Origin: Candidatus Doudnabacteria bacterium
GTDB taxonomy: Bacteria; Patescibacteriota; Doudnabacteria; UBA920
DNA length: 64,000 nucleotides
Direction: 5' to 3'
Assembly: GCA_963837465.1 (NCBI GenBank)
Contig: CAWINB010000004.1
Coordinates: 330,853-394,852 of the forward strand
In this document: positions 14,183-61,226 of the stretch, piece after piece
How positions within the stretch are numbered: position 1 is the first letter of the stretch
How the letters are laid out: each line of letters opens with the position of its first letter
Program-made: the position numbers and the translations under genes
The notes under the pieces: model-generated
Database searches by the model: none
Seen by the model: the letters and a program-made list of their open reading frames with translations, nothing else
What the model was told of the DNA's origin: nothing

Positions 14183-15469
14183 CTATCCGCCAGCGGCCAT
14201 TTTTTGATGTTCCTTAAGTTTAATGTTTTTAAATACTGCTGACTTTGCTTCCTGCATAAGTTTTGCCCATCCGTTATGGCTGTGGCCGGTGCTGATGTCA
14301 TCCAGTTGTTTTTCCGTCCGTCCTGGGGCAAGGTAGCGTGTCCAATTATCCAGAGTCTTCAGTTTGGCATAGGGAGTTAAGTAAATATCATATTTTTTCT
14401 TTTCCTTGCCCTTATGGTCAACCGTGGTGGTGGCAAAGCCGCAGGGTCTGTGGAAGTTCAGGTAAGGGTTAAAAAACTTCTGGTAAAATTCGTTAATCTC
14501 CTGCGCGTAGGTTTTCGGGATATGAGTGTAGCCCATATACTTTCTGATGACACTGCCGTTCTTGCTTTCCACTAAGGCATTGTCATTGCAGTGCCTGCTT
14601 CGTGATTTTGTCTGTTTAATAACTAACCTTCTAAGAATATCAGCTACCGTGTAATTAATGTTCTCGCTACCGTTGTCAGAGTGGAAGTTAATTACTGTAA
14701 AGGGAAACATTTGCTGCAACTGTTCAAATATGGGTTTTAAATGCAGCTCGGAAATCGTTTCCACACAGAAGACCATTTCCCATTGGGTGACTTCATCCAC
14801 CAGGTTTAAGTGGTAAATACCTTTCTCATACTTGCCCAAAGCCAGCTTACGGTCGCCCTGATGCACGGTATCCACCCGCAGATAGCCCGGAATGCCCATA
14901 TTGTCGGGTCTTCTTCTAATACCAATCGGGGTGCTTACTGGATCGGTTATGGTAAAGGTGGTGGAGTGGCTGGTGTAAATTCTTTTAACTCGCAGATTGT
15001 AGATATGGGAAACGGAAATATCTTTTAGTCTTTTAAACCGTTCGTCACCGAATATTTCATATTCAGCCATTAGGATCTGTTTGGTGGCATGGGCATTCAT
15101 TCGTTGGTGCAGATTATCGGTTTCAGCCAGCAATAGTATTTCTGCCGGGCCATAAACAGTAACAAACCGGTTTTTCTTGCCCCAATTCGGGGACAAGGCC
15201 ACTAACCCACTTCCTCTCTTGTTGGTAATCAGTCGTTTTAGCTGTCTGCCCGACATGCCGGTCATCCGTTGGATATATTCCTTAATCTGCCCCTTGTCTT
15301 TTTTGCCTTTAAGCCGGACATAGCCAAACTTGTTTAAGACGTTGTTAATCCATTCATATTTCTCCTTTCTGGAAACTGAGGTAAAATTAATTGCTGTATT
15401 GACCTTTAGAAATTCCTTGATTTGAGCTATGCTCGTAACGCTTAAGTCTGTCATATCGATTGTCATCAA
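14183..15469 (-). CDS. DDE transposase with rve (integrase-core) domain, IS481-like
   Basis: 428 aa with an N-terminal HTH. FHSDNGSEN...HCNDNALVESKNGSV matches the rve D,D(35)E region. It lies immediately upstream of the rRNA promoter. Confidence 0.7.
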   Translation of the reverse strand: MMTIDMTDLSVTSIAQIKEFLKVNTAINFTSVSRKEKYEWINNVLNKFGYVRLKGKKDKGQIKEYIQRMTGMSGRQLKRLITNKRGSGLVALSPNWGKKNRFVTVYGPAEILLLAETDNLHQRMNAHATKQILMAEYEIFGDERFKRLKDISVSHIYNLRVKRIYTSHSTTFTITDPVSTPIGIRRRPDNMGIPGYLRVDTVHQGDRKLALGKYEKGIYHLNLVDEVTQWEMVFCVETISELHLKPIFEQLQQMFPFTVINFHSDNGSENINYTVADILRRLVIKQTKSRSRHCNDNALVESKNGSVIRKYMGYTHIPKTYAQEINEFYQKFFNPYLNFHRPCGFATTTVDHKGKEKKKYDIYLTPYAKLKTLDNWTRYLAPGRTEKQLDDISTGHSHNGWAKLMQEAKSAVFKNIKLKEHQKMAAGG

Positions 15470-15599: not shown

Positions 15600-15628
15600 T
15601 TGACACCTTTTTCCAAAAGGTTTATAAT
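15600..15628 (+). promoter_or_regulatory. consensus sigma70-type promoter (TTGACA-17 nt-TATAAT), probable rRNA promoter
   Basis: Perfect -35 and -10 hexamers with a 17-nt spacer, about 690 nt upstream of the 16S 5' end on the same strand. Confidence 0.55.
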
Positions 15629-16287
15629 TGCTTGGCGGTTAGGAATTAAATCTTAACGTTTAAAACTTCAATAAACTTTTAGTTCAATTTTGCTCTTATG
15701 TAAGCGGGCATCGCTGATTATAGGAGATCCCTATTGGCACCTGGGAGACTGGACATTATCCACATTTAAGATGGATATGTTTTTTTTAGCCTCAATTTTA
15801 GACCCTTCAGGATCAAATTATAGAGGCTAATCCGCCGAAGCCTTGGCGAAGGCTGGATAACTAAGTTTGATCGCCGATAAATCGGCACGCTACGCCAATC
15901 ATCTTGGTCAAAGCAAAGTACCTCAAAATGAGATGCTCCGCTCCGCTCAGGATGCGTTCCTACGGAACTGTACCTTAACAGTTAAATAGTGATTAGAAAA
16001 CACTGAATACCGCCCGGTATTTAGTGTGTACAAAACCATCGCGTCTTGACCTATTTAAACCAGGTTGAGATGCAATGTTTGCGTCAATTCAATATGAGTT
16101 CAATGATATTCTGTGAATAACAGAAAAATGTTTTGTTAGGTTTACATTTTACAAAAATAAATCTAACGCCAACTTAACATCAATATTTATATTCGTGTTA
16201 AGAGGTTTGTCTTTTAGACAGATCAAACTTTCAATTTTATTTCCGTCCCGCCAAAGGCTGGGACAATTCAGGATTTATAATTGATTT

Positions 16288-17873
<1,586 letters not shown>

Positions 17874-17878
17874 AGGAA

Positions 17879-18137
17879 CTTTTCTTGACTACACTGGTTT
17901 TCGAACTGTGTGTCAAGACATTCTGTTGGTCGTCGTCAATTATTTCGATTTTTGACGCAATCCTTTCTCAATAAGAAACGACGTAAACGTAAGTGGTTTT
18001 GTATAGCGGTAATTCTACCCATATTTAGCAATAAATATGGGCCTGAGCGCCTTTAATGCTCGGGGTCACTATTTAGCCGTTAAAAAACGGAAATTGCAAT
18101 TAAAAAGCCTGACTTCTACTACTGAAGTGAGGCTTTT
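17879..18137 (+). promoter_or_regulatory. conserved left-arm leader of island 1 (attL arm), with covarying hairpins
   Basis: Homologous to 34681-34942 and 47739-47996. Shared blocks are ggtcgtcg, acgtaaac, ggttttgta, ggtaattctacc, tttagcaataaata, tcactatttagccgttaa, gaaattgcaa. A hairpin plus T-run lies just before the int ATG. Confidence 0.6.
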
Positions 18138-19121
18138 ATGTTTTATAAGGAAAGTGTCGTAGAAACATCTACGAAAACCGACAGTAGGGTTTTGCCATCG
18201 TCCCCGGCTGTTTACAGCCCAAAGATGAGCGAGTTGGTTGATGGGTTTTTAAAGCACGGTCAGTTTGATTTAAGCTGGTCGGCTGGGACAGTCGCAAAAT
18301 ACGGTGAGTGTTTACGGATGACTATTCGGGACATCGGCGATTTGCCGGTAAATGAAATCCGTTTGGTTCACCTTACGGAATTAAAATCTAAAATAATAAT
18401 GCGCGGAGCCGGAGAGTCCAGAGTCGGCTCAATGGTTTTTGCGTTAAAAAGTTTTTTAAAATACTGCAAGGAAATTGTGGAGTTGGATGTGCTGGACTTT
18501 AACAAGATTACCCCGCCAAAACGCCATCGCCGGGAAGTGCTGTTTTTGACCAACGAAGAAATTCAGCGGTTTGTGGATGTTATAAAAATAAAAAATACCT
18601 GGGATGGGAAAAATAAAAAGAGTTGCGTCCGAATGGATGGTCTAAGGTTCAGGGCTTTGGTAGAAGTCTTGCTTGGCAGCGGTATGAGAATATCCGAGGC
18701 GTTATCGCTTAACCGGGGTAGTATAAATTTTGAAAAGAAAGAGGCAAAAATTATCGGTAAAGGTAGCAAGGAACGCACGGTATTTTTTAACGATCGTTCG
18801 TTGGAATGGGTTAGGTATTTATTGGAAGAAAGGAAGGACAGTCACGAACCTTTATTTCTTTCCCAAAAAGGCAACAGGTGGGATAAGGGAGAAGTTAATA
18901 AACTGTTTCAGCGTTATACTAAAAAAGCGGAAATCACCAAAAAATTAACGCCCCATATTCTGCGGCATACTATGGCCACAAACTTACTTTTTAACGGTTG
19001 CCCGATTTCCCACGTCAAAGAAATTTTAGGCCATGATAGGCTGGAAACCACGTGCCGCTACTATCTGGGTTTGGACAAGAGTAAGGCCAAGGAGGCTCAC
19101 GAAAAATTCTTGAATTATTAA
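18138..19121 (+). CDS. tyrosine recombinase/integrase (class A)
   Basis: 327 aa with LLGSGMRISEAL...IIGKGSKERTVFF...HILRHTMATNLL...GHDRLETTCRYY. The R..H..R..Y catalytic residues are present. Confidence 0.85.
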   Translation: MFYKESVVETSTKTDSRVLPSSPAVYSPKMSELVDGFLKHGQFDLSWSAGTVAKYGECLRMTIRDIGDLPVNEIRLVHLTELKSKIIMRGAGESRVGSMVFALKSFLKYCKEIVELDVLDFNKITPPKRHRREVLFLTNEEIQRFVDVIKIKNTWDGKNKKSCVRMDGLRFRALVEVLLGSGMRISEALSLNRGSINFEKKEAKIIGKGSKERTVFFNDRSLEWVRYLLEERKDSHEPLFLSQKGNRWDKGEVNKLFQRYTKKAEITKKLTPHILRHTMATNLLFNGCPISHVKEILGHDRLETTCRYYLGLDKSKAKEAHEKFLNY

Positions 19122-19365
19122 AAAAATTTATTGAATAAATAGCTCAATTTCGCTATAATTAGAATAATTGAATAGGTGCCTAACCCCATGGCTAAAACTA
19201 TGGGTATGGTAGAAGTAAAGAATCCTCAGCTACGTAAAGACGGTCTCTTAACCGCTCTCGTAGCTGAGGTGCGTGCGAAAGCATGCGGTGGTGTCGAAAG
19301 GCACTGCTGCGGTTGGGAGGCCCTTTTTGTATCCAACCGCAATTTAAAAACCTCAGCTACAACAA

Positions 19366-27916: not shown

Positions 27917-28885
27917 ATGAGCCAGTTTAACCAAAACCCAGATCCTAATTTTATACAGCAGCCATCTGCTCCGGTTTTAGGTTTGCCGGTCGTAAATACC
28001 CCACAGCTTTTGACCTTTGAACAGTTGATCCCGTTGTTTGGCGATTACGTCACTTACGATTTGAATCATAGTCCTAAGACATCCAAAAAGTATGTCGAGG
28101 GGTTAAGGCATATTTTGAAAGACCTACCCTTTATAGTTTACCCCCAAGACTTAACGTTGCCGCATATTACGGAACTGAAGAAAAAAGTGCAGTTGCGTGG
28201 CGCAAAAGAGTCCCGAGTTAATAGTCTACTATTCTCATTGCGAAAATTTTTAACCTATTGTAACGAAGTCTATAAACTGGTTACAATAAATCCAAAGGAA
28301 ATTAAAGTTATGCGATTACCAAAAAGGGAAGTGGTGTTTTTGGCTCCTGCCGAAATTGAGCAATTTTTAAGCGCAATGGATACAACAACTTTGCCGGGAT
28401 TACGAATACGGACGCTTGTAGAGGTGCTACTTTCCACTGCTATGCGAATTTCCGAAGCCCTGTCGGTCAGCCGTGGGGACATTGACTGGGAGGGCAAGGA
28501 AATTGTCATTATAGGGAAAGGCAATAAGCAGCGGACGGTATTTTTAAGCGATAGGGCAATCGGTTGGCTTCAAACCTATTTACTCCGGCGTAAGGATAAT
28601 GACCCTGCTTTGTTCGTAACCTTTGGCGAACCCAAACGCTTGTCGCCTTATGACTTGTCTAAGCAGTTTAAGCACTATGCTGAAAAAGCAGGATTAAAGA
28701 AAAAAGTAACACCCCATATTTTACGCCATACGGCCGCGACAACCATGTCCCATAACGGCGCGGACATTCGTAACATTCAGCTAATTTTAGGCCATAGCGA
28801 CATTAAAACAACCGCCAAATATTACTTAGGCGTGGACAAAGAGGCTTTAAAGGAAGCCCATAAAAAGTTTCTAAAATACGATTAG
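27917..28885 (+). CDS. tyrosine recombinase/integrase (class B)
   Basis: 322 aa with LLSTAMRISEAL...IIGKGNKQRTVFL...HILRHTAATTM...GHSDIKTTAKYY. A distinct clade from the 18138 integrase. Confidence 0.85.
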   Translation: MSQFNQNPDPNFIQQPSAPVLGLPVVNTPQLLTFEQLIPLFGDYVTYDLNHSPKTSKKYVEGLRHILKDLPFIVYPQDLTLPHITELKKKVQLRGAKESRVNSLLFSLRKFLTYCNEVYKLVTINPKEIKVMRLPKREVVFLAPAEIEQFLSAMDTTTLPGLRIRTLVEVLLSTAMRISEALSVSRGDIDWEGKEIVIIGKGNKQRTVFLSDRAIGWLQTYLLRRKDNDPALFVTFGEPKRLSPYDLSKQFKHYAEKAGLKKKVTPHILRHTAATTMSHNGADIRNIQLILGHSDIKTTAKYYLGVDKEALKEAHKKFLKYD

Positions 28886-34584: not shown

Positions 34585-34680
34585 TAACAATTAAATTGAT
34601 CTTTTAAATTTTTAATACAGTAGTAGTTTGTCAGGCAATTTCCGTTTACAACGGCTCAGAAACACCTCCTTTCTAAGGAA
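34585..34680 (+). repeat. right arm type 1 plus att core copy 2 (RA at 34585-34662, core at 34663-34680)
   Basis: About 78 bp (aattgatcttttaaatttttaatacagtagtagtttgtcaggcaatttccgtttacaacggctcagaaa) identical to 51783-51858, followed by cacctcctttctaaggaa. Confidence 0.75.
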
Positions 34681-34942
34681 TAAATATGCAGCCTTAAACT
34701 TTTCGAAGTTTATGTTGTTGCACATTCCAGTGGTCGTCATCTTCTATTTCGATAGAAGGTGCACATACTCTAACGATTGAACGTAAACGAACGGTTTTGT
34801 AAAAGGTAATTCTACCCTTATTTTCGCAAGATTATAAGGAGTCTCAACGCCTTAAATGTTGGGAGTCACTATTTAGCCGTTAAGGGAACTTAACGAAATT
34901 GCAAATAAAAGCCTCGTCATCAGCAATGATAACGAGGTTTTT

Positions 34943-35929
34943 ATGTATGAGGTTAATTCGGTAGAAAGAGTCGCAAAAGGTGGAATTGCGGCGACAGTCA
35001 GCCCCGCCGCTCCTATCGGCACAAAGATTAGCACTTTGGTGCCGCAATTCTTGGCTTATGGCCAGTATGACCTGTCCTTTGCCGCAGGCACCATAGAGAA
35101 ATACCGCGATAGCCTAAACGTCTTTATGCGGGACGTTGGGGATTTGCCCGTAGAGGAATTAAACTTTGGGCATTTTACTTTGCTGAAACAAAAAATTATG
35201 GAAAGGGGGTCGGGGGTCTCACGCATAGCGGGCGTGGTCTTTGCGATGAAAAGTATGTTAAAGTTTGCTACCGACGTATTGGAGATGCAGATTTTGGATT
35301 ATAAGAAAATCAGAGCGCCGAAGCGGCGCAGGCGGGACGTAGTTTATTTAACCAATGCCGAAATCCAGCAGTTCGTTGACAGCATAAAGTTTGAAAAATG
35401 CTGGACGGGCAATACCCGTAAAAAGGGCATCAGCGTCCACCGCCTGAGGTTTCGGACTTTGGTTGAAGTCTTGCTTGGCACGGGGATGCGTATAAGCGAA
35501 GCATTGTCGCTTACAAGGGATGTTATAAACTTTGAAAAAGGCGAGGCTAAGATAATCGGCAAAGGAAGCAAGGAGCGCACAGTGTTTTTTAACGAACGGG
35601 CTTTGTATTGGATTAAGTTTTATTTGGAACAGAGAAACGACGACAATCCCGTTATATTTTTAAACCGAAAAGGCAAGCCGCTGGACAGGGGCGATGCCGA
35701 TACTTTGTTTAAGCGTTACGCAGAAAGGTCAGGTATAACTAAAAAATTAACGCCGCACATTTTGCGGCACACGATGGCGACGAATCTGCTTTTTAACGGA
35801 TGCCCGATTGGCCATATTAAGGAAATCCTCGGACACGACCGATTAGAGACAACTTGTCGTTATTATTTGGGCTTAGACAAAGATAAAGCTAAAGAAGCCC
35901 ACGGCCAATTTTTAAATTACGAACAATAA
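34943..35929 (+). CDS. tyrosine recombinase/integrase (class A)
   Basis: 328 aa. The C-terminal catalytic half is near-identical in pattern to the 18138 and 47997 integrases. Confidence 0.85.
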   Translation: MYEVNSVERVAKGGIAATVSPAAPIGTKISTLVPQFLAYGQYDLSFAAGTIEKYRDSLNVFMRDVGDLPVEELNFGHFTLLKQKIMERGSGVSRIAGVVFAMKSMLKFATDVLEMQILDYKKIRAPKRRRRDVVYLTNAEIQQFVDSIKFEKCWTGNTRKKGISVHRLRFRTLVEVLLGTGMRISEALSLTRDVINFEKGEAKIIGKGSKERTVFFNERALYWIKFYLEQRNDDNPVIFLNRKGKPLDRGDADTLFKRYAERSGITKKLTPHILRHTMATNLLFNGCPIGHIKEILGHDRLETTCRYYLGLDKDKAKEAHGQFLNYEQ

Positions 35930-38582: not shown

Positions 38583-39614
38583 ATGCAAAATACAGCAGTA
38601 GCAACTATGAACCCGCCTATGCTGGCGGTTGCAGAAGACTTGTCGCCGATAGAAATTGTCTATTTGGCCACAAGCGAGATTCGGCCTGATAAAAATCAGC
38701 CCCGTAAATCTCTAGACAGTAAGAAAATTAAGGAAATGGCGGAAAGCATTAAGGCCGTTCGGGGGATTATAAATCCCATCGAAGTCGACCAAGACTATAT
38801 TATTGTTACGGGACAGCTCCGCTGGGAAGCCGCTAAGGTGGCGGGGTTAGAAAAAGTGCCGTGCAAAATAATAGAAATCAGCGATGAGGAGCGCTTCCGC
38901 AGGCAAGTAGTGGAAAACTTGCACCACAACGTGATGAGCGATATGGATATTGCTAAAGCATTTGCTAAGATGCTTAACATTCTACCTGGTAGCAGGTTGC
39001 AGGGAAAAGACGCTGGCCTTAGCCGCTTGGCTGAAGATATTGGTAAAAGCGTGGACTACATCAGCCAGCATTTAGACCGATTGGAAGACTCTGGGCGCAT
39101 TCAGGAAGCTTTGAGTTCGGGAAAAATTTCTTTTACCCACGCAAGAGAGACAAAGAAAGTTCCCGCTGGCTTCAGGGAAGCCGTAGAGAAAAAAATGCTG
39201 GCGGGCGAGTTTCCCCATAGCGGTTCCATAGCGGAATTGGCTAAAGGCTTAAAGAGGAATCCAGATAAAGCCGACCAAATTTTGGCATTTAATTTTACGG
39301 AGTTAAAGTCGCCTGAGGAAGTTAAACAGGCAGTATCCAAAATTGCATCTCCTGCGGCGGATGCTTCGGGGGCAGTAGAGGAATTCAATAGAATTATAAA
39401 TGGGCTTATGCACTGGCTTGAAAACACCCCGTCGTCCTATGCCGCTGAACACCCCGAATTGAAAATCAACCAAACGCTAACCAAGCTCGGCAAGGAGATT
39501 AAGAAATGGCTGAAAAATCTGAAAGAATTTCAGGCTCGAGCGGAAGTTAAGGGGCAGACGATGTTGGATATGGATATCCCCGAAATAACAGTAGATGATA
39601 TCCCCGAATTCTAA
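38583..39614 (+). CDS. ParB/Srx-like N-terminal-domain protein (ParB-like nuclease/partition protein)
   Basis: KNQPRKSLDSKKIKEMAESIKAVRGIINPIEVD...VTGQLRWEAAKVAGLEKVPCKII, the ParB N-terminal domain motifs. Confidence 0.7.
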   Translation: MQNTAVATMNPPMLAVAEDLSPIEIVYLATSEIRPDKNQPRKSLDSKKIKEMAESIKAVRGIINPIEVDQDYIIVTGQLRWEAAKVAGLEKVPCKIIEISDEERFRRQVVENLHHNVMSDMDIAKAFAKMLNILPGSRLQGKDAGLSRLAEDIGKSVDYISQHLDRLEDSGRIQEALSSGKISFTHARETKKVPAGFREAVEKKMLAGEFPHSGSIAELAKGLKRNPDKADQILAFNFTELKSPEEVKQAVSKIASPAADASGAVEEFNRIINGLMHWLENTPSSYAAEHPELKINQTLTKLGKEIKKWLKNLKEFQARAEVKGQTMLDMDIPEITVDDIPEF

Positions 39615-39632
39615 AATTAAAGACATAACCAT

Positions 39633-40682
39633 ATGAACAATATGACAACCTTCACTAAACAGTGGACTTCCAATAGGCCTAGAATTTTCGGGGTCTTTGG
39701 GAAAACCCAGCAGGATGACACATTTGAAATTTTAATTCCAAAATTTCTTGACTACGCCCAATTTGATTTGAAACTGGCCAAAGAGACCATCGGAAAATAC
39801 AAAGAATCTTTGGGTTGGGTGACAAGGTATCTGCCCGACGTGGAACGCCCCGCCCAAATGACGCTGGAAGATGTTACCCGAATTAAAAAGCAGGTGGCAA
39901 TGCGTGGCAATAGCGAGGCTCGGACTAACTCCATTATCTTCGCCTTGCGGAAGTTTTTGGACTATTGCGGCAAGCGGATGCAGATTGAAACCATTGACCC
40001 AAAGACCATAGAGCCGCTGAAAATCCCCAAGCGGGAAGTTATCTACCTTAACAAGGACGAGATAAAAAATCTGCGTGATGTATTTGACTTAGCCAACAAG
40101 CGGGAGTTCCGAATGCGGGTGCTGGTGGAATTTCTGCTCGGCACGGGAATGAGAATCTCTGAAGCGCTATCGGTCAATCGTGAGCAGATTAATTATGACA
40201 GCAAGGAAATAAAAATTGTCGGCAAGGGCAACAAGGAGCGCACAGTTTTTGTTTCCGATGATGCCTTAGGCTGGATAAAAAGGTATCTGGATACCCGCAC
40301 GGATGACAATCCTGCTGTCTTTATAACCTTTGGCGAGCAAGAAAGGTTAAGGCGGGGCGACTTGGCAGAATTATTAAGAGGTTATGGAATAAAAGCGGGG
40401 CTACAGAAGAAAGTTACGCCGCATATCTTGAGACACTCATCGGCAACCACGATGATGCGGAAAGGCTGTCCTCTGCCTTACATCCAGCAGTTGCTCGGCC
40501 ACGCCGACATTAAAACGACCGCCAAATATTATCTTGGCGTTGATAAACAATCCGTCAAAGATGCTCACGAAAAATATCTTAAGTTCGACCACCACCGTTT
40601 GGGAATGGCGGCACCTGTGCGTAAAGGTATTGACTTGGATAGCTACCTTGAGTATTTCTCGGCCTATCTTCCGAAAGAGTAG
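39633..40682 (+). CDS. tyrosine recombinase/integrase (class B, with about 30-aa C-terminal extension)
   Basis: 349 aa with LLGTGMRISEAL...IVGKGNKERTVFV...HILRHSSATTMM...GHADIKTTAKYY. Confidence 0.85.
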   Translation: MNNMTTFTKQWTSNRPRIFGVFGKTQQDDTFEILIPKFLDYAQFDLKLAKETIGKYKESLGWVTRYLPDVERPAQMTLEDVTRIKKQVAMRGNSEARTNSIIFALRKFLDYCGKRMQIETIDPKTIEPLKIPKREVIYLNKDEIKNLRDVFDLANKREFRMRVLVEFLLGTGMRISEALSVNREQINYDSKEIKIVGKGNKERTVFVSDDALGWIKRYLDTRTDDNPAVFITFGEQERLRRGDLAELLRGYGIKAGLQKKVTPHILRHSSATTMMRKGCPLPYIQQLLGHADIKTTAKYYLGVDKQSVKDAHEKYLKFDHHRLGMAAPVRKGIDLDSYLEYFSAYLPKE

Positions 40683-45857: not shown

Positions 45858-46056
45858 CTATTAAAACTCAATCGGCTAATTTAGGCTCTTAAACAATAGT
45901 GGGTAGCACAGAGGGTAAACTTTGGGAGGGGATAACTGTGTTGCTACAACTTTTTGTAATCGCTAACATCTGTGTAAGACTTTAAAAATTAAATATCTTT
46001 GCTGACCGAAGCGTAGTGCAGGAATTATTTTTTTACACCTCGGATTAAACACCTCC
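45858..46056 (+). repeat. right arm type 2 plus partial core (cacctcc at 46050-46056)
   Basis: About 190 bp homologous to 47521-47720 (ctattaaaact..aatcggct..aaacaatagtggg..gggtaaactttgg.aggggataact.tgttgcta...cgctaacatc...ttacacctcggattaaacacctcc). Confidence 0.7.
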
Positions 46057-46124
46057 ATACGGCTACAACTTCCTCACTTAGCAAAAATCGCCCAAAAGGC
46101 GGTTTTTTTTGTTATAATTTAACT

Positions 46125-47520: not shown

Positions 47521-47738
47521 CTATTAAAACTAAATCGGCTTTAAACAATAGTGGGCGGTAGTGGGGGTAAACTTTGGAGGGGATAACTTTGTTGCTAAAA
47601 AATTTTACTGCCGCTAACATCCGAGTAGCAATTTAAAAATTAAATATCATCGCTGTAAGCGAGCTTGAAAATAAATAGTGGGAGCGAGTGGGGGTGAACA
47701 ACTTTACACCTCGGATTAAACACCTCCTTTCTAAGGAA
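47521..47738 (+). repeat. right arm type 2 (second copy) plus att core copy 3 (47721-47738)
   Basis: See 45858-46056. The core is the full 18-mer cacctcctttctaaggaa. Confidence 0.7.
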
Positions 47739-47996
47739 CAATATGCACCCTTTTCCCTTTTCGAAGGGGAATGTTGGTTCACATTCCGTAGGTCGTCGTT
47801 AATTTTTTCGAAAATTAGCGCACTTCTTGAAACTTCAAAGAACGACGTAAACTGGTGGTTTTGTAACGGTAATTCTACCGTATTTAGCAATAAATACGGC
47901 CTAAGCGCCATTAATGCTTGGGATCACTATTTAGCCGTTAAAGGTTAAACACGAAATTGCAAAGAAAGTCTCGGCCGTTATGGTGCGAGGCTTTTT

Positions 47997-48968
47997 ATGT
48001 TCTATGCAAAAACGTCACTTGAATCAACCGCTAAAGTAGGAACTTTAGCGCCAATCTCCAATGATTTGACAATGAGCCAGCTCATTCCAATGTTTTTAAA
48101 GTACGGTCAGTTTGAATTAATGTTCTCACAGAACACGCTCACCAAATACGACGAGTGTTTAAAATGGGTTGTTAGGGACATCGGCGATTTGAAGGTCACG
48201 GAGTTAAGCCTGTTCCATTTTACCGAGTTAAAACAGATAATAACTAACCGTGGTTGCGGCACCAGCCGCGTTGCTTCCATGGTGTTCTCCATGAAGAGTT
48301 TCCTTAAGTATTGCAAGGACTATCTAGAGCTGCCGGTCATGGATTACAAAAAGATAAGGTCGCCGCGGTTTAAGCGCCGTGAAGTGATTTATTTAACTAA
48401 CGAAGAGATTGAGCAGTTTGTCAGCGCCATTAAAATAGAGAATGGCCCTCGTGCCATAAATTCGGTACGTATGGATGGCCTAAGGTTTCGGGTACTGGTG
48501 GAAGTCTTGCTCGGCACCGGCATGCGCATTTCTGAAGCCTTGTCGCTTAACAGGGATATGGTTGATTTTGAAAAGGCCGAAGCCAAGATTATAGGCAAAG
48601 GCAGCAAAGAACGTACAGTATTTTTCAGCGAGCGGTCGCTTGATTGGGTCAAGCGTTATCTATCCCTGCGTACAGACAATGAACCCGCTTTGTTTCTCAC
48701 CCAGCAGAATACGCGCCTGTCCAAGATAGATGTGCCCGGCTTCTTTAAACGGTACAGCAAGAAGGCCGGTATAACGAAGAAACTGACACCGCACGTGCTC
48801 AGGCATACCTGTGCTACGAACCTCTTGTTTAACGGCTGTCCCATAAACAATGTTCAAGTAATTTTAGGGCATGACCGGCTGGAAACCACCTGTCGCTATT
48901 ATCTCGGTGTTGACAAAACAAAAGCCAAAGAGGCACATGGCAACTTTTTAAATTATCAATTGTCGTAA
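47997..48968 (+). CDS. tyrosine recombinase/integrase (class A)
   Basis: 323 aa with LLGTGMRISEAL...IIGKGSKERTVFF...HVLRHTCATNLL...GHDRLETTCRYY. Confidence 0.85.
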   Translation: MFYAKTSLESTAKVGTLAPISNDLTMSQLIPMFLKYGQFELMFSQNTLTKYDECLKWVVRDIGDLKVTELSLFHFTELKQIITNRGCGTSRVASMVFSMKSFLKYCKDYLELPVMDYKKIRSPRFKRREVIYLTNEEIEQFVSAIKIENGPRAINSVRMDGLRFRVLVEVLLGTGMRISEALSLNRDMVDFEKAEAKIIGKGSKERTVFFSERSLDWVKRYLSLRTDNEPALFLTQQNTRLSKIDVPGFFKRYSKKAGITKKLTPHVLRHTCATNLLFNGCPINNVQVILGHDRLETTCRYYLGVDKTKAKEAHGNFLNYQLS

Positions 48969-51782: not shown

Positions 51783-51865
51783 AGCAATTAATTGATCTTT
51801 TAAATTTTTAATACAGTAGTAGTTTGTCAGGCAATTTCCGTTTACAACGGCTCAGAAACACCTCC
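51783..51865 (+). repeat. right arm type 1 (second copy) plus partial core cacctcc (51859-51865)
   Basis: Identical over about 78 bp to 34585-34662. After cacctcc the sequence diverges (ctccggctacag). Confidence 0.75.
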
Positions 51866-52558
51866 CTCCGGCTACAGAAAATGCAAATACAGAAACTGTC
51901 CAAGAATGAAATCGCCCGCTCGTAATTGAGAGGGTTTTTGATTATAAGAGACCGATGGGTTGTGGTTCATGTTACCTCTGGACAGTTTTCGGCCGTAGGT
52001 TATAATTAAGGCAAGATATTAACTAATTATTATATGGGGACTTATGCAGGAGGCAGGCCAGGTGGAGAAGTTGACCCGGGGCTTATTGCCGGTCAAATTT
52101 TGGACAAATCAAAAAAAGGCGAAAGCAAACAGAAACAGCCTTTAGCCGAGGCTCTTGCTGATAAGGCATTATCGCGAGACCAGATGTTTCAAAAGCTGTA
52201 TAGTATGGTGCCAGCAATGGAACGCTATGCCGAATCACGGCTCGGCAGCCATAAAGCCAATGCGGCCGACATTGTGAGCAAGGCCATGGCCTACGTGATT
52301 CAGAGTGCAAGCGTTACCTTTTGGGTGCTTATTTCCGGAAATTTTTTTACGAAAAAACTTAATCAAAATCGCAATGTTCAAGAAATACGCGTGTTTTGAA
52401 ATTTTCATTTCAACACACACATATCCCTTGAAGCAACTTAACTAGTTAAACCACGATTTTTTGTCTTAATTGTGTTTTAAAAATACAATCTCACGCACCC
52501 AAAAGGTAACGCTCTCATTCAGAGTATAGATAACGGGGTTTTTCGGTTTAATGCGCCG

Positions 52559-52965: not shown

Positions 52966-53256
52966 ATGAAAAAGGTGTTTACCCCGCAGCAGAAAGCTGC
53001 GGTAGCCCTGGAGGCCATTAAGGGCGAATTAACAATTGCACAGATTGCCAGTCAATACGAAGTTCATCCCACTCAGATCGCAGTCTGGAAGAAACAGGCC
53101 ATAGAGATTTTAAAGGCCGGCTTTACCGATAAGCGTAAAAAGGAAAATTTTGACCAGCAGAGGATAACTGATGACCTCTACAAGACCATCGGCCAGCGCG
53201 ACATGGAGCTGGCCTGGCTTAAAAAAAAGTTGCAGCCATTTGGACTTTCAGACTAA
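52966..53256 (+). CDS. IS3-family transposase OrfA
   Basis: 96 aa: LTIAQIASQYEVHPTQIAVWKKQ (HTH) plus a leucine zipper. Confidence 0.7.
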   Translation: MKKVFTPQQKAAVALEAIKGELTIAQIASQYEVHPTQIAVWKKQAIEILKAGFTDKRKKENFDQQRITDDLYKTIGQRDMELAWLKKKLQPFGLSD

Positions 53257-53700
53257 ACAGAATTTAATTATTCCCGGTCTCCAAGGCCTTTCCATTGCCA
53301 GGCAAGCAAAGCTCCTTAATATTTCCCGCTCCGGTTTTTACTACAAGCCCGCGTCCCTAAGCCCTGAAGAAATTCGCATCATGGGCTGTATAGATAAAAT
53401 CTTTACCGATTGCCCATTCTACGGCTCCCGCAGGATCAAGCACGAGCTGGAAAGTCAGCCGTACAAAATTTTCATCTGTCGAGAGCATGTGCAACATCTT
53501 ATGCGCCAGATGGGACTGGAAGCTATATATCCAAAAAAAATTACTACCATACCTAACCTGCAGCACCTTAAATACCCCTACTTGTTAAAAAATTTGCCTA
53601 TTGTGAGGCCTAACCAGGTCTGGGGCACGGATATTACCTACATTAAGCTACTCGGCGGCTTCTGTTATTTAGTCGCCTTACTGGACTGGTTTTCCCGATA
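53171..53700 (+). pseudogene. IS3-family transposase OrfB, truncated after the first part of the rve domain
   Basis: Homology (..VWGTDITYIKLLGGFCYLVALLDWFSRY) stops at about 53700. The remainder of the 53171..54139 ORF is unrelated low-complexity sequence. Confidence 0.6.
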
Positions 53701-54525
53701 CGGGGAATATAGGGATACAAAAAATCAACCGTACATAGAACTGCAAAAATCCGGGTGGAAAGGTGAATTAGGTCAAGAGCTAAAAAATAGATTTAGCTCT
53801 GCCTCTGAACAATCGCATGCAAACTTGTTTAAAATGATGTTTTGGAGAGGCTCAAGAACAGAAAAAGAAAATGGTCAATTTAAGATAGTAGATCGTTTTG
53901 AATTTTTTGACAATCCAAACCCGCCAGATTGGATGATAACTAACCTCCACTGGCTGATAGACACCTCTTTTACCATACTGATTTTGTTGTCAGAAACTTT
54001 TCAGGAACCTCAAAAAAACAGTGATTTTAAAAAAGCAGTACAGACTAAATATTCAAAGTATAAAAAATACATACTTGAGAACCAGGACAAAATATTGATT
54101 AGACATAAGCTCACATATATTCCAGAAGAAGAAGTTTAATTTTTTGGTCAAACTCCACTGTCGATATTTTATAATTGATTTGTTATGACCGTTGGTTGTT
54201 TTTTAAAATTTTTGTTATAGTTTTATCGGAGTAGTGAGAGTTGGTGTTTTTAGCCCTTTTGGCTAAAACACTGCCGTGTAATAAGTCCGCCATCCGCCTT
54301 GTGCGGTGGATTTGCCCGAGTAGGGTGAAAGGTGCGGTTAAAAGCGGCAGTGGCTTACGGGTCCACCAAGAGTTCAGCCGAGCAATAACTGGAGCAAAAC
54401 CGAGGGCTGGAAAGCGAAATAGGATTTTCCTCTCGCTTGCTACTCCCGCAAAGAACTTCCAATTTTGGGAGTTTTTTGTTTTTAAACAATAGGGAATATG
54501 GAGGTATTGTTATAAACACCTCATT

Positions 54526-59612: not shown

Positions 59613-59889
59613 CCCGCGAAGGCTATTTAATGAAACAATAAAATCTAAATTACTAATCCAGAAAAGAAATTGCAGGCTTTAGGGACAAAGCGATCCACGA
59701 CTATGCCGGCCTTCATGCCGGGATAGTTTGGGAAACCATCCAAACGGATTTAAAACCACTACAAACAGCCTTGTTAAAAGTATCATAAGAGCTAAAAGTT
59801 GATATTTTTGACAGGCTGTTTTGTTTTCTCAAAAATGCTATAATGTAATTACTAATTGTTATCTCAACTGGAGATAAAAGCCTCTTTTC

Positions 59890-59947
59890 AAACTAAATAG
59901 TGACTCCTGCAACACAGTTCCTACGTCGGGGTGAACACCTCCTTTCT
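59890..59947 (+). repeat. terminal right arm (type 3) plus partial core cacctcctttct (59936-59947)
   Basis: aaatagtg...ggggtgaacacctcctttct resembles the aaatagtgggagcgagtgggggtgaaca...cacctcc of right arm type 2. The probable distal attR of the whole array. Confidence 0.5.
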
Positions 59948-60017: not shown

Positions 60018-61226
60018 ATGAAAGTCTATGAAGTCTCCGATTCCCAGCAGCCAAATGCCGCTCCAAAAATAAATTACACCAGCGAGCCTACTCCAAAAGC
60101 AACCGGCAAACGGCAGGTTTCCCTTGTCGGCCCCAAAATAATTATCGGGACTATTGTTTTTGTGTTTTTATTGCTGGTCGGCAGCGCCTATGCTTTTCTT
60201 TCGCATTCCCTGTCGCGTACCAGCAAGAGTTTTAAAAATGGCCAGGCCATCAGTTTGGCTTCTTTCGCGGCGGCGGCAAATACCAAGCTTATGGGGGAAG
60301 ACCAGGATCGCACCAATGTTATGATTTACGGGCTAACCGCGGACGGGCTTCGCACCGACACAATAATTTTGGCCTCGTACTACTGGAATGAACGCAAGTT
60401 GGTCATGCTTAACATCCCCAGGGATTTGTACGCCAACTACGACAACCATGATACAAAGATTGTTTCCCTGTACGCCATTGCCAAAGACGCGGATCCGGGG
60501 GACGAGAGCTATCCCCCCCAGTACGTCAGCGACTTTATTTCCAAGGAATACGGCATCCCCGTAGATTACTGGGTCGTTGCCAATATGAATGCCTTTAAAC
60601 AGCTGGTAGATTCCGTTGGCGGCGTAACCATAAATGTGCCAGACTCTTTTACCGATTATGAGTACCCAACTGACGATTACAGCGGCTACATCCGTCCCGC
60701 TCCCCATTTTAGCGCCGGCGTTCAGACCATGGACGGCGCCACGGCGCTTATTTACGCCCGCAGCCGCCATGCCGCCGGGCCGGAAGGCACGGACTTTGCC
60801 AGGAGCAGGCGCCAGCAGGTTATTATAGAGGCGATTTTAAGCAAACTTAAGCAGCAGGGAGCGTTAACCGATGCGACCAAGCTTGATTCCTATCTGCAAA
60901 TTTTTGGCAGCAATGTTTTTACCGATATGACGCCGGCCGAACTGATTAAATCCGGCCAGCTGGCCGGCCAGCTGAATTTATCGCAGGACGTTATTACTGC
61001 CAACTGGAGCAATGATATTGGTTTTTTGTGTGATTCCACGGACGCGGGAGGTTCTTACGTGCTTCGTTACGGCGTTTTGGGCAACTGCACAGGAGCGGCC
61101 GGCGACAACGACAGCTCCCCATACAGGCAACAGGCCGTTAATTATGTACAGAACCTTTTACAGAGCGCGGAACCTCCGGTTTCAACCAGCACGGCCACCA
61201 GCGCCACAACTACCTCGCCTGACTGA
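60018..61226 (+). CDS. LytR-CpsA-Psr (LCP) family cell-envelope transferase
   Basis: N-terminal TM, then NVMIYGLTADGLRTDTIILASYY...LNIPRDLY, the LCP domain signature. Confidence 0.75.
   Translation: MKVYEVSDSQQPNAAPKINYTSEPTPKATGKRQVSLVGPKIIIGTIVFVFLLLVGSAYAFLSHSLSRTSKSFKNGQAISLASFAAAANTKLMGEDQDRTNVMIYGLTADGLRTDTIILASYYWNERKLVMLNIPRDLYANYDNHDTKIVSLYAIAKDADPGDESYPPQYVSDFISKEYGIPVDYWVVANMNAFKQLVDSVGGVTINVPDSFTDYEYPTDDYSGYIRPAPHFSAGVQTMDGATALIYARSRHAAGPEGTDFARSRRQQVIIEAILSKLKQQGALTDATKLDSYLQIFGSNVFTDMTPAELIKSGQLAGQLNLSQDVITANWSNDIGFLCDSTDAGGSYVLRYGVLGNCTGAAGDNDSSPYRQQAVNYVQNLLQSAEPPVSTSTATSATTTSPD

Follow-up and report, generated by a model that had tools for sequence, protein, structure and literature searches.

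Some genomic islands and prophages insert at the 3' end of a tRNA or tmRNA gene, and their attP contains a substitute for the 3' segment of that gene. A related arrangement at a 16S rRNA gene is described here in a 64,000-nt stretch of DNA from a Candidatus Doudnabacteria bacterium (Patescibacteria, or Candidate Phyla Radiation, CPR; contig CAWINB010000004.1, positions 330,853 to 394,852), the whole of which is called the window. The 16S gene and two further copies of its last nucleotides are each followed by an arm of ~265 nt and by a gene for a tyrosine recombinase (int1, int2 and int3), and each arm is probably a 16S 3' trailer copied and carried by the element. As in tRNA and tmRNA islands, a tyrosine integrase lies beside attP, the predicted crossover falls inside a stable-RNA gene, at its 3' end, the element would restore the displaced 3' part and leave the gene intact, and tandem arrays with direct repeats as borders occupy one site. 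Unlike in those islands, the target consists of the final 12 nt of a 16S gene, including the anti-Shine-Dalgarno sequence, and the restored part consists of ~250 nt of precursor trailer with a predicted terminator, which lies beyond the mature RNA and has its partner, the leader, ~1.9 kb upstream.

In E. coli and other bacteria, the leader and spacer of pre-16S RNA form a stalk, the RNase III stem, and a boxA antitermination element lies in the leader. The present locus resembles this processing stalk in that long-range helices between leader and post-16S sequence are predicted to enclose the whole 16S, with the leader strand at a boxA-like motif (GCTCTTTAACAG in L005, one of the homologous loci). 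It differs in that the 3' strand is encoded by a mobile element and not by the host operon, and in that the unit ends at a predicted terminator with no run-on into tRNA or 23S genes. Elements specific for rDNA include the R1/R2 retrotransposons of animal 28S rDNA and the group I introns and homing endonucleases of CPR rRNA genes, and the same extreme conservation of rRNA appears to be exploited here as a safe, universal target. Whereas R1/R2 and introns lie inside the mature rRNA and are inactivating or self-splicing, the present elements follow the last functional nucleotides, the rRNA remains colinear with its trailer and recombination would be of the site-specific tyrosine type. The feature follows a principle already known, in which an integrative element restores the gene that it targets, and extends it to the precursor of 16S. 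No description of integration at the 16S 3' end or of a mobile replacement trailer was found in the literature, coverage of which was incomplete, and novelty is unproven.

The array, the arms and their pairing with the 16S leader

The 16S gene occupies 16287-17870 (Rfam RF00177, 1274.6 bits, full-length match). It is the only 16S gene of the window, and an Rfam scan of the 64 kb found no 23S or tRNA gene. The 16S gene, its leader, the arms, the attachment cores and the three integrase open reading frames (ORFs) are on the + strand. A putative 16S promoter lies at 15600-15628, ~660 nt 5' of the mature 16S (TTGACA-17-TATAAT, 12/12 consensus positions, from a consensus scan only). The terminal 12 nt of 16S, CACCTCCTTTCT, occur in exact copies at 17861, 34663, 47721 and 59936. 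Copies 1-3 are followed by AAGGAA, the arm and an ORF of 323-328 aa matching Pfam PF00589 (E ~1e-40 for all three): integrase 1 at 18138-19121 (327 aa), integrase 2 at 34943-35929 (328 aa) and integrase 3 at 47997-48968 (323 aa). The attachment core, CACCTCCTTTCT plus AAGGAA, is an imperfect palindrome (TCCTT-TCT-AAGGA). Core copy 1 (17861-17878) is joined to the true 16S, while copies 2 (34663-34680) and 3 (47721-47738), and hence arms 2 and 3, follow non-16S sequence at the right ends of elements 1 and 2; the rightmost core (59936-59947), in which CACCTCCTTTCT is followed by TTCGCAC, marks the array end. Because the cores recur and the sequence before copies 2 and 3 is not 16S, the region of 17.9-59.9 kb is read as an array in which integrative elements follow one another in tandem from the 16S 3' end of this CPR genome. 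Its cargo includes a DNA methylase, a type III restriction helicase-like protein, a rolling-circle Rep-like protein, ParB, a cytosine methylase and an antitoxin.

Arm 1 (17873-18137), now the trailer joined to 16S, arm 2 (34675-34942) and arm 3 (47733-47996) are homologous, with 79% mean column identity in the alignment and 70-74% identity between pairs. The original prediction, made from the sequence of this stretch, held that the arms share conserved blocks in a fixed order, and every block it listed is present in that order. Whole-arm folds gave z = -5.2, -5.5 and -4.2 for arms 1, 2 and 3 against dinucleotide shuffles, and 0/200 shuffles folded equally well. From its 5' end, arm 1 consists of hairpin Ha (17875-17924), the helix D strand (17925-17930), hairpin Hb (17934-17957), the helix C strand (17980-17990), the helix B strand (17993-18004), hairpins H1 (18018-18041) and H2 (18042-18064), the helix A strand (18065-18083), hairpin Hd (18077-18090), a palindromic block GAAATTGCAA (18090-18099), a terminator-like hairpin (18107-18133) and a U-run (18134-18137). 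The corresponding parts of arm 2 are Ha at 34677-34728, Hb at 34738-34761, the helix C and B strands at 34775-34788 and 34793-34801, H1 at 34815-34841, H2 at 34842-34864, the helix A strand at 34864-34885, Hd at 34878-34895 and the terminal hairpin at 34911-34937. In arm 3, Ha is at 47735-47787, Hb at 47797-47820, the helix C and B strands at 47844-47852 and 47854-47865, H1 at 47878-47899, H2 at 47900-47922, the helix A strand at 47923-47945 and the terminal hairpin at 47968-47991. Ha is a three-tier hairpin with a UUCG loop on top, which accounts for the conserved block tttcgaa; Hb is a 10-bp hairpin with a UUCG loop, and the stem of Hd is formed by CCGTTAA and TTAACGG. The block GAAATTGCAA, just 5' of the terminal hairpin (34898-34907 and 47951-47960 in arms 2 and 3), includes the palindrome TTGCAA, in place of which another type of trailer has ATGCAT; no pairing partner for this block was found in the leader. 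The arms contain no conserved ORF, only unconserved ones of 31-53 aa.

Leader sequence TTAACAGTTAAATAGTGA (15975-15992) can pair with the invariant arm block TCACTATTTAGCCGTTAA at 17/18 positions, G-U counted. When the window leader (15968-16286) was folded against each of the three arms with RNAcofold, the same four colinear, antiparallel intermolecular helices, A-D, were obtained in every case. Helix A (18-21 bp) joins 15975-15993 to 18065-18083 (arm block tcactatttagccgttaa), its leader strand lying in a segment (15973-15998) made up of the boxA-like CCTTAACAG and then TTAAATAGTGATTAGAA. Helix B joins 16028-16039 (GTACAAAACCAT) to 17993-18004, in the block ggttttgta (GGTTTTGTA), and a local leader hairpin, CACTGAATACCG...CGGTATTTAGTG (16001-16026), read from the sequence, lies between helices A and B. 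The helix C leader strand, ATGTTTGCGTC, pairs with arm block GACGTAAAC, the cofold joining GTTTGCGTC at 16075-16085 to 17980-17990 in the block (g)acgtaaac. Helix D joins GCCAAC (16168-16173) to GTTGGT (17925-17930), the start of arm block GGTCGTCG, that is, of ggtcgtcg. The energy of the leader-trailer cofold was -185.9 kcal/mol, compared with -148.1 +/- 4.7 for shuffled trailers. Complementarity to the leader at about 16150-16290 had been suggested as a check on the original prediction; complementarity is present, and lies mainly at 15975-16085 instead. A comparison of the whole leader with whole arms by RNAduplex gave loop-rich, meaningless duplexes (z only -0.6 to -2.1) and was replaced by the block-level comparison and RNAcofold. 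The blocks are invariant because leader-pairing strands must fit a conserved host sequence, and the hairpins between them covary because both of their strands lie inside the arm and are hence free to do so.

The same pairing was found in other hosts when each leader was cofolded with its own trailer. Helix A formed in 7/7 of them (L005, L009, L155, L165, L222, L226 and L228), and B-, C- and D-like helices formed in most. In L008, the sequences of which are quite different, five leader-trailer helices of 9, 12, 25, 15 and 8 bp were obtained, and in L005 the block ggtaattctacc gives AAUUCUA, which pairs with leader UAGAAUU beside helix A. The helix A strands of leader and trailer were further aligned in register for 8 hosts (10 rows, one gap) in an alignment that was not structure-fitted. 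Here 82.7% of cells were paired, compared with 31-46% when the strands were slid, and 13 pairs had changed on both sides, compared with 3.9 +/- 1.5 in shuffles. Compensatory changes are seen, for example, in L222, where leader AGCGGTAAG pairs with trailer CTTACCGCT, and in L226, where leader CATAG pairs with trailer CTATG. Among five hosts with simple trailers, the own trailer fitted the leader at least as well as did any other, with one tie. The suggestion that the arm is an RNA replacing the native 16S trailer and processing stem, one of three offered originally, is thus supported by colinear leader pairing, by eight other hosts that behave alike and by the covariation of helix A.

A metagenome scan with a degenerate helix A motif returned mostly 16S leaders and ordinary 16S-tRNA spacers of other bacteria, and in several such spacers (L123, L125, L159 and L177) the helix A 18-mer lies ~108 nt after 16S. 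Helix A therefore occurs widely in pre-16S RNA.

Local hairpins, the terminal hairpin and the integrase start

Two covariance models, one for each half of the arm, were built from arm 1 and a near-identical copy in L007 only, using the fold of arm 1; homologous arms were aligned to them, with shuffles and slid partners as controls. Such models were used because, in a raw MAFFT alignment, RNAalifold recovered Hb alone and the other stems were out of register; in that unfitted alignment 8/9 Hb pairs had changed on both sides. For the 3' half (H1, H2, Hd and the terminator), 95.1% of cells were paired in the model-fitted alignment, which is biased towards the model structure, compared with 73.1% in shuffles and 35-49% with slid partners, and 28/32 pairs had changed on both sides; the 25 matches include three weak ones that are not arms, namely one other window site and two opposite-strand leader regions. 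For the 5' half (Ha and Hb, the two UUCG-loop hairpins; 24 sequences), fitted in the same way, the values were 91.8%, 64.3% and 32-49%, with changes on both sides in 24/29 pairs. The effect is large, and together with the controls in which partners were slid it makes a chance origin of the hairpin pairing unlikely. The two hairpins originally quoted for their compensatory changes were located as H1 and the terminal hairpin, and both covary strongly once 20-25 homologues are added; the list was incomplete in that Ha, Hb, H2 and Hd covary as well. Several positions hold G-U pairs in most sequences (UG in 14/16, GU in 8/14). Since each would be an A-C mismatch on the other strand, the pattern fits an RNA of the + strand only.

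These data bear on the arm-type recombinase sites suggested in the original prediction and, more broadly, on a reading in which the blocks and palindromic hairpins are DNA-level sites, namely arm-type or accessory sites of a lambda-type attP bound by integrase, excisionase or a host factor. The arm does lie between the crossover core and int, where a P' arm would be expected, its hairpins are palindromic in DNA, and AATAGTG(R) at several right ends complements CACTATT of the arm. Protein-binding sites would not be expected to evolve as these stems do, changing freely while pairing is kept and retaining fixed G-U pairs. Furthermore, the integrases show only the catalytic domain in Pfam, and a search relaxed to E up to 1 returned no arm-binding domain; the invariant blocks are single-copy and are exactly those complementary to the leader; and the same blocks occur in trailers and spacers that have no integrase, some of the spacers running into tRNA genes. 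Such sites are a highly improbable explanation of the arm, which may still have a secondary role at the DNA level.

The AATAGTG(R) or AGTGG motifs lie 8-50 nt before the pseudo-16S core at right ends (47672-47682 and 59893-59903 in the window, ~9688 in L226 and ~1464 in L234). Being complementary to CACTATT of the arm, AATAGTG(R) could mimic the leader when a circle or a tandem copy is transcribed; alternatively, it may be a degenerate likeness to the true 16S end, GTCGTGGATCACC.

Every arm and trailer ends in a terminal hairpin, the sequence of which is unrelated between arms. In arms 1, 2 and 3 it has energies of -18.2, -17.7 and -15.0 kcal/mol (z from -4 to -8), with an A-tract upstream and 4-5 U downstream. 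In all three arms the U-run is followed immediately by the integrase ATG, as originally described. The accompanying statement that no Shine-Dalgarno sequence is obvious does not hold, since GAGG lies 5-6 nt before each ATG, within the 3' strand of the terminal stem (18129-18132 in arm 1). As the ATG abuts the U-run and the GAGG is buried in the stem, translation of int is probably limited to those rare transcripts that read through or are left unfolded.

The same arrangement would suit a cis-regulatory 5' untranslated region of the integrase, an attenuator or sensor whose likeness to a 16S trailer is secondary, and competition between Hd and helix A for the CCGTTAA segment would permit the alternative folds of such a device. 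The last 35-40 nt would suffice for it, whereas the other ~220 nt are explained by leader pairing; trailers without an integrase have the same architecture, and no Rfam family matches the arm (17860-18150, E up to 1). This explanation is accordingly rated as quite improbable.

Native trailers and the mobility of the elements

In the CPR relatives L145, L165, L098 and L187, the 16S gene is likewise followed by a homologous trailer and a terminator, but no integrase comes next. In L145, genes for Fur, ZIP and VKOR lie downstream of the trailer. Compared with such simple trailers (for example L145, ...TTTCTAATCACTATTT...), the arms of int1-3 and their relatives, here called class A, contain H1 and H2 as an insertion that separates TTCTA from TCAC. 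Since related trailers stand behind integrase-free 16S genes, the arm is a copy of the native trailer of the lineage and not a new class of RNA, at the likelihood given at the outset. The possibility that the blocks are simply remnants of an internal transcribed spacer had been named as a refutation of the original prediction; the homology to integrase-free 16S trailers agrees with it in part, but the element-borne copies are intact and not decaying. The integrase-free trailers could also be left over from earlier elements; such a case is L155 (reverse strand, ~390-660), where the trailer ends in GAGGCTTTTTATGTACTAG, that is, in a terminal hairpin and an integrase ATG with a stop after two codons. 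This relic arm, from which the integrase was deleted, shows that an arm brought in by an element can take over as resident trailer.

In the integrase alignment, close relatives (49-82% identity) were found only in metagenome-assembled genomes of Patescibacteria labelled Doudnabacteria, Moraniibacteria, Colwellbacteria and 'Saccharibacteria'. A protein search returned 1426 homologues at E <= 1e-40. Contigs were fetched for some of them, and the order 16S-arm-integrase recurs in L222, L226, L228, L230, L232, L235, L237 and L243. A full 16S gene lies directly upstream of the integrase in L005, L008 and L009, and other contigs begin within the 16S end. The arm follows the mature 16S directly and on the same strand in L001, L005, L008, L009, L222, L226, L228, L230 and L235. 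A search of IMG/VR returned only distant relatives of the integrases (<=40% identity), so that these elements have not been catalogued as viral; the exact 18-mer also had no match in viral contigs.

The arm travels with the element. Integrase 3 shares 97% identity, and arm 3 shares 95%, with the counterpart in L005, where the integrase lies beside the 16S gene, while the 16S genes of the two hosts are just ~81-89% identical and the element types are arranged in a different order in each genome. For integrase 2, protein P0039 is encoded by a gene whose upstream arm, in L221, has the same score as arm 2. Identical units of arm and integrase stand on a true 16S in L230, L232 and L235 and after non-16S sequence in L231, L233 and L234, where they could be tandem copies or circles.

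A single element of 4.9 kb in L226 lies between perfect repeats of 190 bp, each consisting of the 16S end and ~175 nt of trailer; the left repeat continues into the hairpin and int, and the right repeat (attR) into the host's own terminator and host genes. Such a repeat is what would be expected if the arm were host trailer DNA kept passively as a segment of identity for recombination, with its structure and covariation due to selection on host trailers and without benefit to the element. The trailers behind integrase-free 16S genes agree with this, as does L155, which indicates that arms and native trailers interconvert. In the window, however, the junction repeats of the array are just 12-19 bp, so that a long identity segment is not required. 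The arms differ from each other by 25-30%, yet each keeps all helices and hairpins and pairs with the leader of this host, and the near-identity of arm 3 to its partner in a host with ~11-19% 16S divergence indicates that arms are not resampled from each host. Passive homology is therefore considered unlikely.

With the arm taken as an element-borne trailer, the following course can be proposed. The tyrosine integrases would recombine within CACCTCCTTTCT, the candidate attB being GGATCACCTCCTTTCTAAGGAA, and integration would thereby sever 16S from its former downstream sequence. The arm would supply the final 16S nucleotides, and its four short strands would pair with the host leader and rebuild the leader-trailer stalk, on which processing of pre-16S would normally depend, with helix A on the boxA-like segment and the local hairpins placed between the leader-pairing strands. 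The terminator-like hairpin and U-run would end the 16S transcription unit, and int would be expressed from read-through transcripts in which the stem is open. The homology, structure, covariation and leader complementarity of the arm, and its movement together with the element, are observed; pre-16S processing, termination at the U-run and control of int are the functions that we infer for it. In a wider and more tentative reading, which is quite possible though not favoured, these elements would form a large and apparently undescribed family of Patescibacteria with the 16S 3' end, including the anti-Shine-Dalgarno sequence, as attB; a complete, host-compatible trailer would spare the host, int would be expressed from the rRNA promoter by terminator read-through, and the family would spread the LOOT RNAs described below.

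Several observations weigh against the arm as an element-borne trailer. No trailer blocks were found in the 70 nt after the rightmost core (59936-59947), which differs in this from L226, where attR retains the native trailer; either the native trailer has been lost at this junction or a 16S of this genome was once functional without such a trailer. At two other junctions, at 46056 and 51865 (CACCTCC-nnnCGGCTACA), a short terminator-like hairpin is present without a class-A arm or integrase. The terminator proposed originally is consistent with the stable stem, the A-tract and the 4-5 U of the terminal hairpins, but a simple consensus scan did not call any of these on the + strand, the U-run being just 4-5 U. 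Lastly, the hairpin covariation comes from the structure-fitted alignments mentioned above, and part of it could have been inherited from host trailers and not selected within the elements.

Neighbouring features, LOOT RNA and implications

The two CACCTCC junctions lie at 46047-46068 and 51856-51877, where CACCTCC is followed by ATACGGCTACAAC or CTCCGGCTACAG and then by the hairpin; neither adjoins a true 16S. Right ends are duplicated in the array, 34594-34669 being 100% identical to 51790-51865, and 45889-46056 resembling 47541-47727. Taken together, the junctions and the duplicated right ends point to another element type that uses the same core. At the right end of the last element, a promoter-like site (59808-59836) is directed outward to the host LytR_cpsA_psr (LCP) gene, identified by Pfam at 60018-61226, 70 nt beyond the rightmost core. 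The exact LCP protein was not recorded elsewhere, and no empty site was recovered for this genome.

Two more tyrosine recombinases (class B; 27917-28885 and 39633-40682) lie within elements 1 and 2 and are 41-42% identical to integrase 1; a ParB gene (38583-39614) adjoins one of them. The upstream regions of the class-B recombinases have no shared arm, and these proteins therefore fall outside the feature described here; they may be resolvases or parts of nested elements. Transposase genes of the rve family are located just upstream of the 16S promoter (14183-15469, - strand) and in the last element (53171-54139, + strand). Among the homologous loci, a group I intron interrupts the 16S gene of L005 (1071-1566) and a LAGLIDADG ORF lies in that of L228 (4173-4637), so that the rRNA gene hosts several kinds of selfish element at once. 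Three public gene calls, P0014 (354 aa), P0011 (369 aa) and P0004 (354 aa), are 25-45 aa too long, the ORF having been extended into the non-coding arm.

LOOT RNA (RF03000) was found at two positions in the window (19177-19305 and 689-802) and in L226 (8494-8611), L230 (4491-4611), L231 (4201-4321), L237 (1853-1986), L004 (2549-2669) and L008 (6404-6518). In the window, LOOT RNA is separated by 55 nt from the int1 stop codon, with a promoter-like site (19131-19159) upstream of it and a DNA methylase gene downstream; the L226 copy is enclosed by the repeats that flank the 4.9-kb element, and those of the other loci lie downstream of the integrase. To our knowledge, LOOT RNA has been known only from unclassified marine metagenomes. 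The positions reported here point to a host group and to a mobile-element context, and thus provide these RNAs with a genetic setting.

At a tRNA gene, an inserting element replaces a few dozen nucleotides of the gene, whereas here, as a new integration strategy, a whole functional precursor segment would be replaced, the partner of which lies almost 2 kb away. The single 16S gene of the window offers a safe landing site, and the host range of the elements would depend on rRNA leader sequences. If the wider reading given above is true, compatibility of leader and trailer would be a new determinant of the host range of mobile elements. The arrangement may also account for the long variable stretches that follow 16S in small CPR genomes, and possibly for 16S contig breaks or mis-binning at that spot. 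A natural integrase with its att pair may further serve as a genetic tool for these hard-to-manipulate bacteria.

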